This document shows, in pieces, positions 1 through 31,048 of a DNA stretch of 64,000 nt. A program made the translations under genes and the position numbers. The notes below the pieces were generated by a model. It saw only the letters and a program-made list of their open reading frames with translations, was not told the DNA's origin and made no database searches. The DNA is from a virus (lineage: Duplodnaviria > Heunggongvirae > Uroviricota > Caudoviricetes), in IMG/VR virus record IMGVR_UViG_2675903278_000002; one strand, written 5' to 3'. Within the stretch, counting starts at the first letter, position 1; each line of letters opens with the position of its first letter.

Positions 1-26
1 GGTGGTTCAAACTGGCTACGGTTACC

Positions 27-3000
27 ATGCCACAAGCGAGTTCCATCGTTTACATCGCATTGATTGGTGGCGCTGGTTACAACGTCGGTTCCCCACATCA
101 GGCAGGCATTTCAGAACTGGTTCTACGAGCAGGCAATGGAAACCCCAAAGGAATTACCGGGGCTTTGTGGAAGCGTACAGCCGTCGGATTAACGAATTTC
201 GCCTGGATCAACACATCCGGCGATACATATGATATTTACGTTGAGATTGGCAATTATGCGACGAGTGTAAATATCCATTGGGATTGTACTGCAAATGCGA
301 CAGTTTCTATTTATACATCGCCAACATATTCAGCGAGTAAGCCTTCCAGCGTTACCGATGGTGTTGTTTATACGATGTATAGCACACATCAGAAACCGAC
401 GCCGTTAGATATTGGAGCACTGCCAACAACCGGAGGAACAGTTTCAGGTCCGTTGTCTGTTACAGGTGGATTAACTGGTTCATTGAATGGTAATGCAAGT
501 ACAGCCACGAAATTGCAGACGGCAAGAACTATCGGCGGCGTGAGCTTTGATGGTACTGCGAATATTAATTTGCCAGGTGTTAATACGACTGGTAATCAGA
601 ATACAACGGGCAACGCTGCAACCGCTACAAAACTACAGACAGCGCGTACAATCAACGGTGTTAAGTTTGATGGTTCTGCGGACATAACGCTGACTCCTGC
701 GAACCTTGACGTATACAGCAAAAGCGAAATAGACAATAAAAAAGGGATGAGAAAATACACTTTTTCAGCGCCTGCAAATGCAGTAAGCGGTAAGTGGTAT
801 CCTATAGTCTTTCGCCGATCTGGAGGCAATACCGATGAATTAGCCTCACGAGTTGTGATAACTACTTATTCCTCAGCTGGCGGATACGCCATGAATAATT
901 GTGAATTTAATGGGTTTGTTATGCCTGGCGGTTGGTCTGATCGCGGTTCATATGCGGCTGGTTTTTTCTCAATATATTCTACTGCTGAGCGAGCTATACA
1001 CTCGATTATTTCAGGTGTGAAAGATGACGATTTGTGTAGTGTATTTTACGTTGAAGCCAGAGCATTCCCTATCAAGATATTTGCTGAGGAGGGCTTGAAC
1101 GTAATTGTTCCAACGGCTGATTATGCAGTTGGTCAAACCACTTATAAGTGGGGGGCAACTGATCCTTTATCAGAAAGTACGAATGCACAGATAATTTTGG
1201 ACTTTAAAAATGGACGAGGTTATTACTGTTCACATCCATTTATTTCAAGTCTTTCAGGAAATGCTGCTACAGCAACGAAATTGCAGACTGCAAGAACTAT
1301 CGGCGGCGTGGCCTTCGATGGATCTGCGAACATAAATTTGCCTGGTGTAAACACGGCAGGTAATCAGAATACAACGGGCAACGCGGCTACTGCTACGAAG
1401 TTGCAAACAGCGAGAAACATCAATGGTGTTAAGTTTGATGGCTCAGGCGATATCAACATTAATACACTGGTATCTCGTGGCCGAGTTACGGCGTTAAGCG
1501 GCTCTACTCAAGGCACTGCTGGCATTCAAATGTATGAGGCGTACAACAATAGCTACCCGACCATGTATGGCAACGTATTGCACATGAAAGGTGCGAGTGC
1601 TTCTGGTGAGGGCGAGATGCTTGTTGGCTGGAGCGGAACGGATGGTGCTCATGCACCGGTTTATGTTCGTTCACGCCGTGATACTTCGACAGCGAACTGG
1701 TCTGGCTGGGCGCAGATCTACACAACTGCTCATAAACCCACAGCGAAAGATGTTGGGGCCGCGCAAGCGTTTAGCGCGTCTTACAGCACAGGGGCTGGCA
1801 ATTGGACTACCGCTGAATTTATCGCATGGCTGAAGGAGCGTGGTGCTTTCGAAGTGCCGTACTGGATGATGAAGGGTTCCTGGTCATATGCCGACAATAA
1901 AATTATCACTGATACAGGTGTCGGCAATATCTGTCTTGCTGGTGCGGTTATCGAGGTTTTAGGTACCGAAGGCGCAATGACCATCCGAGTTACTACGCCT
2001 ACAACGACGACCGGTGGTGGGATTGCCTGTGCTCAGTTCACCTATATTAATCACGGTAGCGCGTATGCCCCTGCCTGGCGCAGAGATTACAACACGACTC
2101 TCAAACCCACTGCGGCTGATGTCGGTGCGTTGCCGAGCGGTGGCGGCACACTTTCCGGCGCACTCACATTATCTATGGCTGCGCCAAGTGTCCAGTTACG
2201 AGGGCAAGGTACGGACACCAGACAGTACATCATGGCTTACAGAACCGATGGCGCTACATCATGGTATGTGGGCAAGGCTAACAACGGCTCCGATAATGCG
2301 ATGTTCTGGAACTATACCGGCTCCAACGGAATTGAATTGGCTGCCGATGGCAATGTGCGTATTAATGCGAAGGGTAAACAGTTTACGTTCGCAAACAATG
2401 GGAACTTAGGTCTTGTTGCTTCGTTGGATCAGAGTTCAGTTCCACAGGGTACTTACCATCAAGTAGCTCTTAACACTGGCACTGTTGGTGGTAAATCGTA
2501 CCTTCGAAAATTCCGCGGCGGCAACACAGACACCATTTGGCATGAGACGGTTCAGGGCGGCTTCCTTCGTTGGGCAACCGGCAATGCTGATGAGCAAGAA
2601 GAACTGTCTATCAGTACTGGCTATGGTGTTCGAGCAAGAGGTGAAATCACTTCCCTTAGCGCCAATGGTCTAAGAGTGGCTTACGGGAATTACGGCTTCT
2701 TTATTCGCAATGATGGCGGAACAACTTACTTCTTGCTGACTGCTTCTGGCGACAAGTTCGGAAGCTGGAATGCTTTGCGTCCAATGTACATTAACAACGC
2801 TTCAGGCGCGGTTACGATGGGGAACGGGTTGTCGCTTGCCGGTGGCTTAAATGTCACGAGCGGAAATATCCGAATCCCGACGTCGAGTACATCTTGGATC
2901 GACATGAGAAACAATGCCGCTCTGTCTAACAGTTCTGCGGTTGCCACTTCCTCTGCATCGGCCATTATTCGTCAGGAGCACGCCGATCGTCATTATTTTG

Positions 3001-3437
3001 TTGGTGGTTTAGGCAACTCTCAGTTCGGGTTCTACATGATTAACAAGTCACGAACCGCGAACGGCACGGATGCGAACGCATACCTCCAGAATGACGGTAC
3101 TTGGGTTTGCGGCGGTAATGGCAGCTTTAATGACGTTTATATCCGTTCTGACCGCCGTAGTAAGCGCAATATTCGCAAGATTGACCGGGCGCTCGACAAG
3201 CTGGAGCAGATCGAAGGTGTTCTCTACGAGATTCAGGTCTGTGGCCGTTATGAGCAGTCTGGTGGCCTCATCGCTCAGGATGTCCAGAATGTTCAACCTG
3301 AACTGGTAACGGTCGACCATAACGATCAGTCAGGAGAGCCTCGTCTGCGTCTTAACTACAACGGCGTTATCGGCATGTTGGTTGAGGCTGTCAAAGAGTT
3401 GCGCGAGGAAGTGCGCGAACTGAAGGCAAAAATGTAA
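27..3437 (+). CDS. Phage tail fiber protein with fiber repeats and C-terminal intramolecular chaperone (peptidase S74-like) domain; reading frame is open upstream to the window edge, so probably 5' partial
   Basis: 1136 aa ORF; duplicated NAATATKLQTARTIGGV(S/A)FDG(T/S)ANINLPGVNT motif typical of phage tail fiber repeats; C-terminal SDRRSKRNI ... LVEAVKELREEVRELKAKM resembles the autoproteolytic chaperone domain of endosialidase and L-shaped tail fibers; no stop codon between position 3 and the ATG at 27. Confidence 0.8.
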   Translation: MPQASSIVYIALIGGAGYNVGSPHQAGISELVLRAGNGNPKGITGALWKRTAVGLTNFAWINTSGDTYDIYVEIGNYATSVNIHWDCTANATVSIYTSPTYSASKPSSVTDGVVYTMYSTHQKPTPLDIGALPTTGGTVSGPLSVTGGLTGSLNGNASTATKLQTARTIGGVSFDGTANINLPGVNTTGNQNTTGNAATATKLQTARTINGVKFDGSADITLTPANLDVYSKSEIDNKKGMRKYTFSAPANAVSGKWYPIVFRRSGGNTDELASRVVITTYSSAGGYAMNNCEFNGFVMPGGWSDRGSYAAGFFSIYSTAERAIHSIISGVKDDDLCSVFYVEARAFPIKIFAEEGLNVIVPTADYAVGQTTYKWGATDPLSESTNAQIILDFKNGRGYYCSHPFISSLSGNAATATKLQTARTIGGVAFDGSANINLPGVNTAGNQNTTGNAATATKLQTARNINGVKFDGSGDININTLVSRGRVTALSGSTQGTAGIQMYEAYNNSYPTMYGNVLHMKGASASGEGEMLVGWSGTDGAHAPVYVRSRRDTSTANWSGWAQIYTTAHKPTAKDVGAAQAFSASYSTGAGNWTTAEFIAWLKERGAFEVPYWMMKGSWSYADNKIITDTGVGNICLAGAVIEVLGTEGAMTIRVTTPTTTTGGGIACAQFTYINHGSAYAPAWRRDYNTTLKPTAADVGALPSGGGTLSGALTLSMAAPSVQLRGQGTDTRQYIMAYRTDGATSWYVGKANNGSDNAMFWNYTGSNGIELAADGNVRINAKGKQFTFANNGNLGLVASLDQSSVPQGTYHQVALNTGTVGGKSYLRKFRGGNTDTIWHETVQGGFLRWATGNADEQEELSISTGYGVRARGEITSLSANGLRVAYGNYGFFIRNDGGTTYFLLTASGDKFGSWNALRPMYINNASGAVTMGNGLSLAGGLNVTSGNIRIPTSSTSWIDMRNNAALSNSSAVATSSASAIIRQEHADRHYFVGGLGNSQFGFYMINKSRTANGTDANAYLQNDGTWVCGGNGSFNDVYIRSDRRSKRNIRKIDRALDKLEQIEGVLYEIQVCGRYEQSGGLIAQDVQNVQPELVTVDHNDQSGEPRLRLNYNGVIGMLVEAVKELREEVRELKAKM
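481..700 (+). repeat. Copy 1 of an approx 210 bp intragenic duplication in the tail fiber gene (second copy at 1260..1470)
   Basis: Near-identical nucleotide and peptide segments encoding GNA(S/A)TATKLQTARTIGGV.FDG.ANINLPGVNT.GNQNTTGNAATATKLQTAR.INGVKFDGS. Confidence 0.7.
1260..1470 (+). repeat. Copy 2 of the tail fiber intragenic duplication
   Basis: Direct comparison with 481..700 in the sequence. Confidence 0.7.
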
Positions 3438-3503
3438 TCAAGGTGAATGGTGAGGGGCCACCCTCACCAATTCAGGATATTCACATCAAAAAGGAGATTA
3501 GAT

Positions 3504-4286
3504 GTGCCAATTGTCGGTGTTCCCGGTTGGATTGGGTCTTCGGCTGTCAGTGTGACAGGCCAGAGATGGATGAGTGCGGCTCGAACGGCGGTGCAACTGC
3601 CAGCGGCTGGTTCAATGTCTCAAATGGCCGGGCGATCTAAAGAAGTTCAGTACAGCATCGGTGCGAATCATAACTACAACAAAGACACACTGATCAACTA
3701 TTTAAAATCCCAGGGGGCGACGCCAGTCGTTGTTACCATTACAGGGGATCTGGTGTCGTCCAGTAGCGGCGTGCCATGTTTAGATTTCCCGAGTTCACTT
3801 ACCAACTCTTATATCAGCCTTGTAATCAACGCAGGTGTGACTGTCTATGGACGCGGTGGCAATGGTGGTAGTAACGCTGCCGGTGCTGCTGGTGGTAACG
3901 CAATTAATAATGGCATCGGTACACGCTTGCGTATTACGAATAATGGTGCAATCGCTGGAGGTGGTGGCGGCGGTGGCGGTGGTAACAGGGGTAAACTAAT
4001 ATTTGGTGGTGGCGGTGGTCGCCCATTCGGTGCTGGTGGGTCTTCCTCTCATATGAGTTCCGGTGCAACTGCTGGTACTATTTCCGCTCCTGGTAAAGGA
4101 TCTGTTGGTGAGGGGTCTCTTAGTGCATATACAGGCGGTTCGGGTGGTAATGTCGGTGCTGCTGGAGGAAGATGTAATACTCAAGGTAACGGTACAGAAT
4201 ATAACGGCGGGGCAGCTGGTAAAGCCGTAACTGGCAACGCGCCTACATGGACTAAAGCTGGGGCAATTTACGGCGCTCATGTGTAA
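3504..4286 (+). CDS. Glycine-rich hypothetical protein, possibly tail-fiber associated; proposed GTG start
   Basis: ORF 3447..4286; AAGGAG at 3491..3496 sits 7 nt upstream of GTG 3504; long poly-Gly tracts (GGGGGGGGGN, GGGGG); lies between tail fiber and lysis genes. Confidence 0.45.
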   Translation: MPIVGVPGWIGSSAVSVTGQRWMSAARTAVQLPAAGSMSQMAGRSKEVQYSIGANHNYNKDTLINYLKSQGATPVVVTITGDLVSSSSGVPCLDFPSSLTNSYISLVINAGVTVYGRGGNGGSNAAGAAGGNAINNGIGTRLRITNNGAIAGGGGGGGGGNRGKLIFGGGGGRPFGAGGSSSHMSSGATAGTISAPGKGSVGEGSLSAYTGGSGGNVGAAGGRCNTQGNGTEYNGGAAGKAVTGNAPTWTKAGAIYGAHV

Positions 4287-4360
4287 GTACTTACCTACCA
4301 AGTGTGGGCGTTTTATGATATAAAACCGCCATCCCGATTTGACTTTTCATGGAGGAAAAC

Positions 4361-4684
4361 ATGTCGAACGAGATGGCGGGCGTTACAACAGAGCAAGTTG
4401 AGCGTATTGCCGCGATCGTTGCTCGGGAGGTTGTTGGCAAATTAGGTAAAGAGCTACGTGAAGAAATTGGCCAGGAGGTCAATGATCAGCTGAAAACCTA
4501 CTTTGGTGATATGACCCCGGCGCAACATAGTATTCAACACTCCAATCTGGACAAACTCCTTAACCGGTTAGATTCCATCTCAAGTGGGTTCTTTGGCGGC
4601 ATTGTTTCTAAAATAACGTCGTTCATTATTACCGCACTGCTTTTGGGGTTAGCCGCGTATGGCGTAAAAAGTGGACTGCAATAA
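4361..4684 (+). CDS. Small membrane protein, holin candidate
   Basis: GGAGG RBS before ATG 4361; hydrophobic C-terminal segment ITSFIITALLLGLAAYGV; immediately upstream of the putative endolysin. Confidence 0.4.
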   Translation: MSNEMAGVTTEQVERIAAIVAREVVGKLGKELREEIGQEVNDQLKTYFGDMTPAQHSIQHSNLDKLLNRLDSISSGFFGGIVSKITSFIITALLLGLAAYGVKSGLQ

Positions 4685-4697
4685 CAGGAGATCAAGG

Positions 4698-5390
4698 ATG
4701 AAAACTCCGAGAGGCATTCGTAATAACAACCCTGGCAACCTCGACAAAGGTTCGCCGTGGCAGGGGCTAATCGACAACCCTGCCGAACCGCGCTTTTGCA
4801 CGTTTAAAGACCCTGTTTGGGGGATTCGTGCGCTGGCGGTGACTCTAATTACCTACCACGACAAACGTCGCGCAAAAGACGGCTCAAGTATCGATACCAT
4901 TCGTGAAGTTATTGAACGTTGGGCACCGCCGAATGAAAACAATACTGACGCCTACATTAATGAGGTGTCTAAAGCCGTTGGTGTAACCGCAGACATGATT
5001 ATCGATCTGCATGATTACGACATTCTTCGACCTTTGGTTGAGGCAATCATTCGCCATGAGAATGGGCGAGGTCCGCTAAAAACGCTGAACACCTGGTATG
5101 CGGCAGAAGTTATTGAGGAAGGTCTGCGTCGAGCTGGCGTTGTTAAGCCGGCGAAAACCGTGAAGGCTGTTCCTGTAACTAAAGAAACCGCAGGCGCAAC
5201 TGTTACAGCAGGTATTGGTCTGGCGCAGCTGGCCGATGTTATGCCGCAGGTTTCCGCTGCTATGGATAAAGCACAAGGTCATATCTCTAGCGGGGATACA
5301 GTACGCATCATCTTCGGTATTGCCACTATTGTTGTGGCAGGATTCATTGCCTGGTCGCAGGTAAGAAAACACCAGAAAGGGATGGTCTAA
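4698..5390 (+). CDS. Putative endolysin or peptidoglycan hydrolase (family not assigned)
   Basis: AGGAG RBS before ATG 4698; N-terminal GIRNNNPGNL motif; gene order small membrane protein - this gene - i-spanin - o-spanin matches a canonical lysis cassette; C-terminal hydrophobic segment is atypical. Confidence 0.45.
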   Translation: MKTPRGIRNNNPGNLDKGSPWQGLIDNPAEPRFCTFKDPVWGIRALAVTLITYHDKRRAKDGSSIDTIREVIERWAPPNENNTDAYINEVSKAVGVTADMIIDLHDYDILRPLVEAIIRHENGRGPLKTLNTWYAAEVIEEGLRRAGVVKPAKTVKAVPVTKETAGATVTAGIGLAQLADVMPQVSAAMDKAQGHISSGDTVRIIFGIATIVVAGFIAWSQVRKHQKGMV

Positions 5391-5811: not shown

Positions 5812-6333
5812 TTATTCTTCGAACAATTTTTCGATAGATTTTGTAGGATAGAACAAAGAACGCTCGTTGTTACCAACCAGCTGGATAAAGCCTAAACTTT
5901 TATAAAACGCCTTGGCTTTGTCATTTAACGCCTCAACGAAAAGTCCATGAATGCCTACAGCAAGAGATGCATTGTACACAACGCGCATTGCATGTGTTAC
6001 AAGCATTGAGCCAAATCCTTGACCTTGAAGGGACTTGTCCAAAGCCAGCCTACCCAAAGTAACACTTGGAACATTCCGATAAGGAACCTTCTTTTGTTTG
6101 CTTCTTGAAGGTAAGGACTCCTTTTCAAAACAACTACCTGACAAAGTGTAATATCCTAACACTTTTGGCCTTTCTTCTTGAGTGCAAAGCACATAAGCAC
6201 GAAGAATTTTTCCCTCATGCTGCCTTTTTAAGTGGTTGGCTAAAAAGGCGTTTAGTGACTCTTCGCCGCAATCAAAACCGTTTAGATCATAATCTTTCTC
6301 TCCAGAGAAAATCTCTATCGTTGTATTGCTCAC
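5812..6333 (-). CDS. GNAT-family N-acetyltransferase toxin (TacT-like)
   Basis: 173 aa; acetyltransferase-like core (QGQGFGSMLV, FY motif); directly downstream of and co-oriented with a DUF1778-like antitoxin gene. Confidence 0.7.
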   Translation of the reverse strand: MSNTTIEIFSGEKDYDLNGFDCGEESLNAFLANHLKRQHEGKILRAYVLCTQEERPKVLGYYTLSGSCFEKESLPSRSKQKKVPYRNVPSVTLGRLALDKSLQGQGFGSMLVTHAMRVVYNASLAVGIHGLFVEALNDKAKAFYKSLGFIQLVGNNERSLFYPTKSIEKLFEE

Positions 6334-17579: not shown

Positions 17580-17654
17580 GATGGTGTAGCTCAGCGGTAG
17601 AGCAGTTGGCTGTTAACCAACTGGTCGGTGGTTCGAATCCACCCACCATCGCCA
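17580..17654 (+). tRNA. tRNA-Asn (anticodon GTT)
   Basis: Manual fold: 7 bp acceptor stem GATGGTG/CACCATC, D-arm TAGCTCAGCGGTAGAGC, anticodon loop CTGTTAA, T-loop GGTGGTTCGAATCCACC, 3' GCCA. Confidence 0.75.
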
Positions 17655-17656
17655 AT

Positions 17657-17732
17657 GCCGGTTTAGCTCAGTTGGTAGAGCGCCTGCCTTGTAAGCAGGA
17701 TGTCAGCGGTTCGATCCCGTTAACCGGCACCA
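17657..17732 (+). tRNA. tRNA-Thr (anticodon TGT)
   Basis: Manual fold: acceptor GCCGGTT/AACCGGC, D-arm TAGCTCAGTTGGTAGAGC, anticodon stem CCTGC/GCAGG with loop CTTGTAA, T-loop GGTTCGATCC, 3' ACCA. Confidence 0.75.
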
Positions 17733-18052
17733 ACACAACAGGTAAGAGCATTGGGCGAATCGGCGATACTGACCCACAAGCCCGTAAATCGATAGAGTCA
17801 GACCAGTGCTCTTACCGTTGTGAGGAAGTGCAGCTCTTTGAAGCAACCAGAAGATAAGCATCTGGCTTCACAACACAACGATAAGATCATTACGGTTAAT
17901 CGTCGTTCATGTGCACAATGACTGGTCGAAAGGTAGTGATCTTACCGTTGTGATGAATGCACAGGCTGATGTGCCGCAACTACAGTAGTGCGCGCTTTGC
18001 GGGGCTTGCTACAACCCTGTGTCGGAGTTCAGCACCGACCATCACAATAGCT

Positions 18053-18139
18053 GGAGAGTAGGGAGCATGGTGCTCAAGCGGTCTTGAAATCCGTCCCATT
18101 GTGCAAACGATGATGGTTCGATTCCATTACTCTCCGCCA
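18053..18139 (+). tRNA. Class II tRNA with long variable arm, most likely tRNA-Ser (anticodon TGA); anticodon stem imperfect
   Basis: Acceptor GGAGAGT/ACTCTCC, T-loop GGTTCGATTCC, 3' GCCA, long variable region; anticodon loop CTTGAAA only with a mismatched closing pair. Confidence 0.55.
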
Positions 18140-30232: not shown

Positions 30233-30503
30233 AGAATTATGGCGCTTGTTGAGGAAGTCACTCCTCTTACGCACTTTGTTTTGCCATGCCGGCAGTTAGC
30301 TTCTGCCTTTGACTATTCATGCGGCAACCCCGCATTTCGCCACAATGGGCAATTCACTTTTATGGAATAAACTGGCCGTTGTGTCGATTTAATTAGCATG
30401 GCCTTACCATGCTAATTTATTCAACTTGTACAATCCTGCAAATCTATCCACTCAGGCTTACACCGTCTTCGTTATTGTAGAAATGAGGATCATCAGCGTT
30501 GAA

Positions 30504-30719
30504 TCAGCTTAGAGCAACGACATTTGCTGCTGCTGGGCCTTTAGCCCCATTCTCGATAGAGAATTCGACCTGCTGGCCTTCTTCCAAAGTGCGGAAATTA
30601 TTACTCTGAATTGCCGAAAAATGTACAAAAACATCTTTACTGCCATCAGCAGGAGAAATAAAGCCAAAGCCTTTATCAGAGTTAAACCATTTTACTAAAC
30701 CAGTCATTTTATTAGACAT
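30504..30719 (-). CDS. cspA: Cold-shock protein (CspA family)
   Basis: [21 protein letters not shown]... RNP1-like motif; 71 aa from the internal ATG at 30719. Confidence 0.85.
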
Positions 30720-31048
30720 AGATATTACCTTCTTAATTTTGTGAGCCACATAGTGCGGCGAGAATTTGATCTGTATAGATTGGGACTTACTTAGGCACTT
30801 AAGGAGGAGACTCACGAAGAAGGGAAATCAGAAGATAACACTGAACTGAGACTGCTTTACTAAAACTGCTTACATAAGGTCTGTCTTGCAAACCAACGAT
30901 GCTATTAACGCATACCCCTTCTTTTCATGCAACCTTTATTTTTCAAAGATAACTAATTTTTGTCACCATTGGTTTAGTAAACGTTAACGAACCAGACGAT
31001 GCCAGACACCTTTACAGAGAACAGATGCCCGCCAATTGGCGGGCATCA

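Follow-up and report, generated by a model that had tools for sequence, protein, structure and literature searches.

In the S16 and T5 tail fibers and the K1F tailspikes, C-terminal intramolecular chaperones are removed by autoproteolysis (PMC7289586). In T2 and T6, gp37 loses its C-terminus by cleavage, after which gp38 caps the end (PMC3157838). In S16, the gp37 trimer forms a beta-helix, and a single gp38 uses three tryptophans to dock on its base (PMC6851490). Exchange within conserved fiber motifs is an established pattern in the T-even phages (PMC3157838). Here, we analyze a tail-fiber gene and its downstream neighbor at the start of a 64,000-nucleotide (nt) stretch of Caudoviricetes DNA, IMG/VR record IMGVR_UViG_2675903278_000002, referred to as the window; detailed examination covered its first ~6 kb. 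We consider it very probable that this gene encodes the mosaic fiber of an SSU5-like phage-plasmid, in which old shaft repeats flank a swapped module, and that the chain ends in a self-cleaving chaperone and is capped by a gp38 adhesin.

The limits of the gene come first.

3..3437, plus strand: tail-fiber coding sequence (CDS), truncated at its 5′ end by the window edge; supported by the open frame, the CDSs of pF404-2 and pXH988_2, and tail-fiber PHROG matches.

The initial annotation had placed this gene at 27-3437. The stop at 3435-3437 stands, and the start at 27 is a listing artifact. The frame of the listed open reading frame (ORF; 1136 amino acids, aa) stays open up to window base 3, reading WFKLATVTM..., and in both pF404-2 and pXH988_2 the corresponding CDS (3681 nt, 1226 aa) has its start codon 244 nt ahead of the first window base. 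What looked like a start at 27 is therefore an internal methionine, residue 91 of the full protein, and the window carries the last 1144 of ~1226 fiber codons plus the stop, or the 3′ 93% of the gene. Residue numbers below count from nt 27; the full-length number is obtained by adding 90.

The same two E. coli plasmids, pF404-2 and pXH988_2, are the closest public records (95.8% and 95.5% identity to window 1-4400). The allele is identical to no record searched, the top whole-query match being 95.8%. Megablast returned matches in 464 plasmid records, mostly Escherichia and typed non-mobilizable (~106-120 kb among the matches listed), with at least 80% query coverage in only 9 of the 464, and the best phage matches were the SSU5-like CMS-2020a, SSU5, and Cyrano. 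The fiber/lysis region shares synteny and DNA similarity with SSU5 and with IncFIB-typed plasmids of ~106-112 kb. Because the downstream gene order (adhesin, holin, endolysin, spanin, GNAT/DUF1778 pair, ParA) is that of SSU5 and pF404-2, the window derives from an SSU5-like E. coli phage-plasmid.

Within the fiber gene, a repeat search aligned 489-685 with 1257-1453 (197 nt, 82% identity), and self-blastn aligned 489-676 with 1257-1444 (188 nt, 83.0%, E 1.85e-52), which is far above chance. In codon register, the match extends to a 69-aa block, aa 152-220 versus 408-476 (nt 480-686 versus 1248-1454), and identity is 90% for the protein and 78% for the DNA. A 40-aa unit, GNAxTATKLQTARxIxGVxFDGSxxIxL..., occurs twice in a row in either block, giving four units that begin at aa 155, 195, 411, and 451. 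Weaker self-blastn matches (501-560/621-680 and 500-553/1388-1441) reveal the unit periodicity in the DNA as well.

480..686, plus strand: repeat block 1; unit 1 (489-608) is of the internal type, ending ...NINLPGVNTTGNQNTT, and unit 2 (609-686) of the terminal type, ending ...DITLTPAN.
1248..1454, plus strand: repeat block 2; unit 3 (1257-1376) is of the internal type, and unit 4 (1377-1454) of the terminal type, ending ...DININTLV.

The blocks are non-adjacent, lying 768 nt apart. The initial annotation had recognized a repeat of ~210 bp as a single duplicated module at 481..700 and 1260..1470. The repeat itself is borne out by the self-blastn match; the proposed limits run ~15 nt too long at the 3′ end, and the composition of each block from two tandem 40-aa units had been missed. 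Several searches returned nothing for the repeat. Tandem Repeats Finder reported no array in the fiber gene, the 120-nt periodicity being too diverged (~63-72% nt identity), and a blastp self-comparison of the fiber gave no off-diagonal matches, so blastn and the codon-register comparison were used in its place. A Pfam search at E up to 10 found no repeat family for the 40-aa unit, and the phage fiber-repeat profile PF03406 (Phage_fiber_2) had no match on the fiber even at that threshold. Where homologues do have a PF03406 match, GIVQLSSATNSTSETLAATPKAVK precedes the module, and this differs from the 40-aa unit. NCBIfam had no match for the fiber or for gp38.

One structural lead concerns Dec, the decoration protein of phage L, whose C-terminal region is a trimeric beta-helix stalk. 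When the PDB was searched by sequence with the unit, the sole match was to residues 95-132 of Dec (PDB 6E3C_C), which resemble fiber aa 158-189 through the look-alike ANAETADKLSTARTI...GSASFDGSANV at a non-significant E of 0.19; as a lead only, this hints that the 40-aa unit may likewise form a beta-helix stalk.

Local blastn of window 1-4400 against related loci gave the following mosaic.

687..1247, plus strand: inter-repeat module of 187 aa (aa 221-407), predicted beta-rich; ~96% nt identity to HdSG1 and 88-91% to E. coli prophage fibers.
Window 1-731: phi458, 92.5% nt identity.
Window 1-680: Cyrano, 91.9% nt identity.
Window 702-1428: HdSG1, 95.9% nt identity.
Window 1313-2167: SSU5, 84.9% nt identity.
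Window 3003-3421: SSU5, 91.2% nt identity.

Several relatives among the E. coli phage-plasmids differ from the window at the repeats. In plasmid p2 of CP059946.1, window 1-679 is joined straight to 1257-2150, leaving four tandem units 120 nt apart with the module absent. In pHXH-2 and AR_0104, another module of ~960 nt follows the second unit, with the match to the window resuming at 1389, where unit 4 starts; pYLMB30c is similar to the window only from that position onward. AR_0104 additionally has window 695-1455 (88%) at another position. We then surveyed homology ends more widely. Of the 864 E. coli records with a match, 60 were sampled across the set, and in these the ends cluster at window 463-469, 476-501, 676-680, 695-714, 1269-1300, 1392-1399, and 1444-1457. 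Approximately 20 chromosomal prophage fibers have window 200-677 only, and others have 695-1444 only, that is, the module plus the following repeat pair. The two blocks occupy 23% of the query and contain 43 of the ~80 internal homology ends; this figure is descriptive, and breakpoint clustering was not used as a formal statistic, given the relatedness of the records and the tendency of alignments to end at conserved motifs. Since the breakpoints among relatives fall at unit edges, the repeats bracket an exchanged 187-aa module.

A second junction sequence recurs in the gene.

393..464, plus strand: junction motif KPTxxD[IV]GALPxxGG, copy 1, found by pattern search; further copies start at nt 1734 and 2103.

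Breakpoints lie just after copies 1 and 3 of KPTxxD[IV]GA, at 463-469 in many prophage fibers and at 2150/2167. There is also a second exchanged module at window 2151-3002, where similarity is missing in WEM25 p1 (2151-2677), in SSU5 (2168-3002), and, over 2151-2972, in pNT1F34-108k and 101.3 p2.

Homologues of the inter-repeat module are Escherichia proteins, several of them named tail fiber or side tail fiber protein. Its AlphaFold2 model is beta-rich and of moderate confidence (predicted local distance difference test, pLDDT, 65.8; predicted template modeling score 0.70). A Foldseek search of BFVD with this model placed the domain within long fibers of JenK1, Vibrio phage phi 3, and Aeromonas phiAS4 gp37 (E 1e-18 to 3e-11), matches that pointed to no function. 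The module is a recurrent internal fiber domain. As a separate observation, the HdSG1 segment homologous to window 702-1428 spans two overlapping CDSs, HdSG1_00041 and HdSG1_00042 (within 1393-5110), which suggests a frameshift or a split annotation in the fiber gene of that record.

By the Nei-Gojobori method, blocks 1 and 2 differ by a synonymous divergence (dS) of 1.10 and a nonsynonymous divergence (dN) of 0.10; taken by unit, dS reaches 0.56 between units 1 and 3 and saturation between units 2 and 4. The divergence of the blocks therefore reads as old and as having proceeded under strong purifying selection. We also compared the units of the window with those of 12 related loci over a core of 96 nt, and recorded for each window unit its nearest counterpart elsewhere and its identity to its in-gene partner.

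Unit 1: nearest elsewhere is Cyrano unit 2 (90.6%); 83% to its partner, unit 3.
Unit 3: nearest elsewhere is unit 1 of HdSG1, a Nonagvirus (100%); 83% to its partner, unit 1.
Unit 2: nearest elsewhere are close plasmid alleles (97-100%); 68% to its partner, unit 4.
Unit 4: nearest elsewhere are close plasmid alleles (100%); 68% to its partner, unit 2.

Neither synonymous near-identity nor a mutual nearest relationship, the marks of a recent intragenic tandem duplication, was found between the copies. Unit counts vary between fibers: SSU5 has one, phi458 two, HdSG1 three in tandem, and Cyrano 3+1+1. With units 1-2 as the query, tblastn found 48 phage records, including P1, P7 (inside the invertible Sv' segment), 9g/JenK1, and Goslar (at eight places), as well as phages of Acinetobacter, Shewanella, Aeromonas, Prochlorococcus, and Synechococcus. 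Because the unit is so widespread among phages and its copy number varies from fiber to fiber, it is a general and ancient fiber-shaft repeat.

The best surviving alternative accepts this age and reads it differently: the duplication would be ancient, intragenic, and held by purifying selection, the segments shared with other elements would have been exported from this lineage, and the repeats would have no special role in recombination. The strong constraint on the unit (dN/dS ~0.1) agrees with it, as does the presence of the unit as a structural element in many fibers, and our comparison is compatible with transfer in either direction. It sits poorly with the independent assortment of the module and its flanks in many E. 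coli prophages and plasmids, where the ends fall at unit edges, and with the relatives that have four units and no module (one case) or a different module in the same place. Exchange within conserved fiber motifs is, moreover, established in the T-even phages (PMC3157838). We regard this alternative as improbable, and prefer the reading in which the repeats flank a swapped module. That reading could be carried further, to direct repeat pairs that support frequent RecA-dependent loss and regain of the cassette (the module and one repeat pair) in the plasmid state, so that lysogen populations mix fiber variants with and without the module; the module could then be a second, lateral receptor-binding domain, and the fiber would have two specificities, one in the module and one in the gp38 tip. 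To this extension, we assign a low probability.

The C-terminus of the fiber resembles self-processing domains of other phages.

3147..3434 (aa 1041-1136), plus strand: predicted intramolecular chaperone/Peptidase_S74 domain, 96 aa, 11.0 kDa; supported by Pfam, S16 gp37, conservation, and fold.

Pfam profile PF13884 (Peptidase_S74) covers aa 1041-1095 at E 3.3e-11, its score of 43.8 bits lying well over the cut-off of 22, and is present in 95 of 99 homologues of the fiber C-terminus. The predicted nucleophile is Ser1041 (nt 3147-3149) and the predicted base Lys1046 (nt 3162-3164), in the motif S-D-R-R-S-K; in full-length numbering, these are Ser1131 and Lys1136. We take this dyad to be equivalent to Ser911/Lys916 of the K1F endosialidase, endoNF. 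Both residues (Ser41/Lys46 of the 136-aa query) are at least 90% conserved across 44 homologues of 29-96% identity. The last 122 residues align with gp37 of Salmonella phage S16 (6F45_A, E 7.7e-13), with S-D-R-R-x-K (SDRRIK in S16), GLIAQ[DE]V, and RLNYNG conserved. The domain sits at the extreme C-terminus, directly after a trimeric fiber-like shaft (aa 837-1040).

An AlphaFold2 model of the C-terminus, which is a monomer of a naturally trimeric domain, has a pLDDT of 83.9 overall and >90 across the chaperone domain. When this model was compared with the PDB by Foldseek, a probability of at least 0.99 was reached only by the MyRF ICA domain (7DC3; E 1.9e-5, template modeling score 0.62) and the K1F intramolecular chaperone (3GW6; 0.99-1.0), other matches having E >0.1. 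The profile match, the S16 alignment, the conserved dyad, and the fold all point to the self-cleaving chaperone that the initial annotation had proposed. In endoNF and T5 pb1, the chain is cut N-terminal to the serine. Assuming the same cut here, the released piece would be 96 aa and 11.0 kDa, and the earlier statement that the mature fiber is shorter than its ORF holds as a prediction.

The gene downstream supports the comparison with T-even fiber tips.

3504..4286, plus strand: gp38-type receptor-recognizing adhesin, 260 aa; GTG start behind an AAGGAG ribosome-binding site, and a RefSeq CDS of pF404-2 corresponding to the same span.

It begins 66 nt past the fiber stop, at GTG 3504 rather than at the listed ATG 3447. 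Two Pfam profiles match it, GP38 at E 4.7e-70 and Gp38_N at E 1.2e-14; it also aligns with S16 gp38 (6F45_D, E 3.7e-47). Polyglycine runs of nine (G9, aa 152) and five (G5, aa 168), together with more glycine-rich stretches that align with S16 and PP01 gp38, give it the features of the polyglycine-sandwich type. A search with residues 1-99 returned homologues from 759 phage records, with genomes of 160-178 kb among the matches listed except for the SSU5-like CMS-2020a. Because these homologues span both groups, the adhesin type is common to T-even phages and SSU5-like phage-plasmids.

Two further details concern the fiber tip. Just two of the three docking tryptophans, W9 and W22, are present in the adhesin, the third aligning to G/S; and in the comparison with the interdigitated domain of gp37, the 6F45_A alignment spans fiber aa 1014-1135, reaching just 27 residues ahead of Ser1041. 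Because just two of the three tryptophans are present, gp38 may still attach here, with docking that may differ in detail from S16.

The missing third tryptophan also lends something to a second alternative, in which the S74-like C-terminus is retained uncleaved and the gp38 homologue merely assists folding, like its T4 namesake. However, both residues of the Ser/Lys dyad are in place and conserved, and the fold matches self-processing domains, while the downstream protein is of the adhesin type (Gp38_N, G9/G5, and E 3.7e-47 to S16 gp38) and not the unrelated T4-type chaperone (PMC6851490), so we judge this alternative quite improbable.

Least credible of all, and very improbable in our view, is the recent duplication and repeat expansion of a ~210-bp shaft module that the initial annotation had read from the sequence: although two blocks of 90% aa identity do lie 768 nt apart in one gene, and small duplications in fiber adhesins are described as altering host range (Tetart 1996, as summarized in PMC3157838), the blocks share just 78-83% nt identity, their dS of 1.1 is near saturation with units 2/4 saturated, both copies have nearer counterparts in other phages than in this gene (HdSG1 has a unit identical to unit 3, and unit 1 is nearest to one in Cyrano), and the copies form no Tandem Repeats Finder array but are non-adjacent, flanking a foreign 561-nt module that is 96% identical to the fiber of the Nonagvirus HdSG1.

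Our preferred reading of a mosaic fiber with a self-cleaving chaperone and a gp38 cap can be put together as a putative mechanism. The 40-aa units would build the shaft, and their conserved DNA would provide homology patches for module swap, insertion, or loss; the comparison of loci shows these differences, and we infer their direction. The module and the following repeat pair would move as an exchangeable cassette, one that is also present in Nonagvirus and lambdoid prophage fibers. By analogy with the known systems, the S74 domain would nucleate folding of the trimer from the C-terminus and then cut itself off at Ser1041 using Lys1046. One gp38-type adhesin would then cap the exposed fiber end, as in the T2 and S16 long tail fibers, and this adhesin, rather than the fiber chain, would be the actual receptor binder.

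The remaining features of the locus are the rest of the shaft and the spacer ahead of the adhesin.

1524..2132 (aa 500-702), plus strand: shaft region like 'Tail fiber protein S / S'' (PDB 8JU3); phmmer versus PDB, E 9e-56.
2193..2369 (aa 723-781), plus strand: gp37_trimer-like region; Pfam PF20744, E 8.3e-6, score 26.2 bits, cut-off 21.7.
2535..3146 (aa 837-1040), plus strand: distal shaft like 'Tail fiber protein S' (PDB 5YVQ), ending at the predicted cleavage site.
3444..3474, plus strand: stable hairpin with no U-tract, in the 66-nt spacer between the fiber stop and the gp38 start.

The alignment of the distal shaft with 5YVQ_A covers aa 837-1051 (E 1.5e-56), and strong similarity stops at ~aa 1030, just before the S74 domain. 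This region includes a domain like the T4 Gp34_trimer (Pfam PF21446, E 2.5e-25; T4 gp34 structures, E ~6e-22). The hairpin has 13 paired bases, including an 8-bp G+C-rich core, and a GGCC loop, with a minimum free energy of −26.1 kcal/mol (3430-3510) and a z-score of −3.2. It is invariant (100%) in eight related plasmids, leaving no covariation signal to assess. It was not called as a terminator and is not a canonical one; it might serve to stabilize the mRNA against decay or to tune the fiber:gp38 ratio, for which the S16 complex has 3:1.

Further features were recorded in the window. A 173-aa ORF at 5812-6333 (minus strand) lies where pF404-2 has a GNAT family N-acetyltransferase and DUF1778 and where Cyrano has a KacT-type toxin and antitoxin; because of these annotations at the same place, the ORF and its neighbor are probably a toxin-antitoxin pair, located just past the lysis genes. 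A tRNA cluster (Asn-GTT, Thr-TGT, and Ser-TGA) occupies 17580-18139 on the plus strand. At 30479-30897 on the minus strand, there is a full-length match to the Rfam cspA thermoregulator 5′ untranslated region (185.7 bits, gathering score 78), which implies a cold-shock protein gene on the phage-plasmid.

The relevance to host range and annotation claimed by the initial annotation holds. For annotation, the ATG at 27 should not be taken for the start codon, the predicted mature chain lacks the 96 aa (11 kDa) of the chaperone, and the adhesin should be called from GTG 3504. It is most likely the gp38 adhesin, and not the fiber ORF, that determines the host range of these common E. coli phage-plasmids. 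A single gene here unites segments of lambdoid prophages, P1-like and SSU5-like phage-plasmids, Nonagvirus, and a 'Tail fiber protein S'-like shaft, and it ends in a T-even-type pair of chaperone and adhesin, which shows how far fiber modules travel. The repeat units and the KPTxxDxGA motif are natural splice points, with possible use in fiber engineering. The gene is a new allele of a well-known mosaic kind of fiber, near-identical RefSeq genes being already annotated as tail fiber and receptor-recognizing protein, and nothing in it would be unexpected to a phage specialist.

Set against the described systems, the tip of this fiber is closest to the distal fibers of T2, T6, and S16 (6F45). 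It shares with this type an S74 domain, which aligns with that of S16 gp37 and conserves SDRRxK, and a neighboring gp38 adhesin gene whose product has both the N-terminal attachment domain and the glycine-rich motifs; the order of events expected here, cleavage and then capping, is that of T2 and T6 (PMC3157838). It differs from them in its carrier, an SSU5-like phage-plasmid of ~106-112 kb as opposed to T-even phages of 160-178 kb; in the part of the shaft above the tip, which is like 'Tail fiber protein S' (5YVQ, 8JU3) and not like gp37; and in its adhesin, which is ~72% aa identical to the nearest T-even gp38 over the first 99 residues and has two of the three docking tryptophans of S16. 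With the K1F endosialidase (3GW6), T5 pb1, and MyRF ICA (7DC3), it shares the hidden Markov model match, the Ser-x4-Lys dyad, and the C-terminal position, along with the fold of 7DC3 and 3GW6. Unlike in those proteins, the domain here is a short form of 96 aa, carried on a fiber and not on a tailspike enzyme, and its cleavage is predicted.

Among phage-plasmids, pF404-2 (WP_317735116.1) and pXH988_2 (WP_420704181.1) have the same locus, with the same layout of two units, module, and two units at 95-96% nt identity. SSU5 (SSU5_021) shares the locus and gene order; unlike the window, it has one unit, matches the DNA just at 1313-2167 and 3003-3421, and encodes a shorter, different adhesin of 178 aa. 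The mosaicism itself is of the kind described for recombination at conserved motifs in T-even phages (Tetart 1998, Trojet 2011) and in the variable parts of the S genes of P1, P7, and Mu, where short conserved motifs flank variable modules and homology ends at those motifs. No invertase was found near the fiber gene in the region examined. The junction here differs from that of T-even gp37/gp38 in being a 40-aa shaft repeat in arrays of 1-4, and not His boxes or glycine-rich motifs, and this same 40-aa unit is found in the invertible Sv' segment of P7 and in P1 S.

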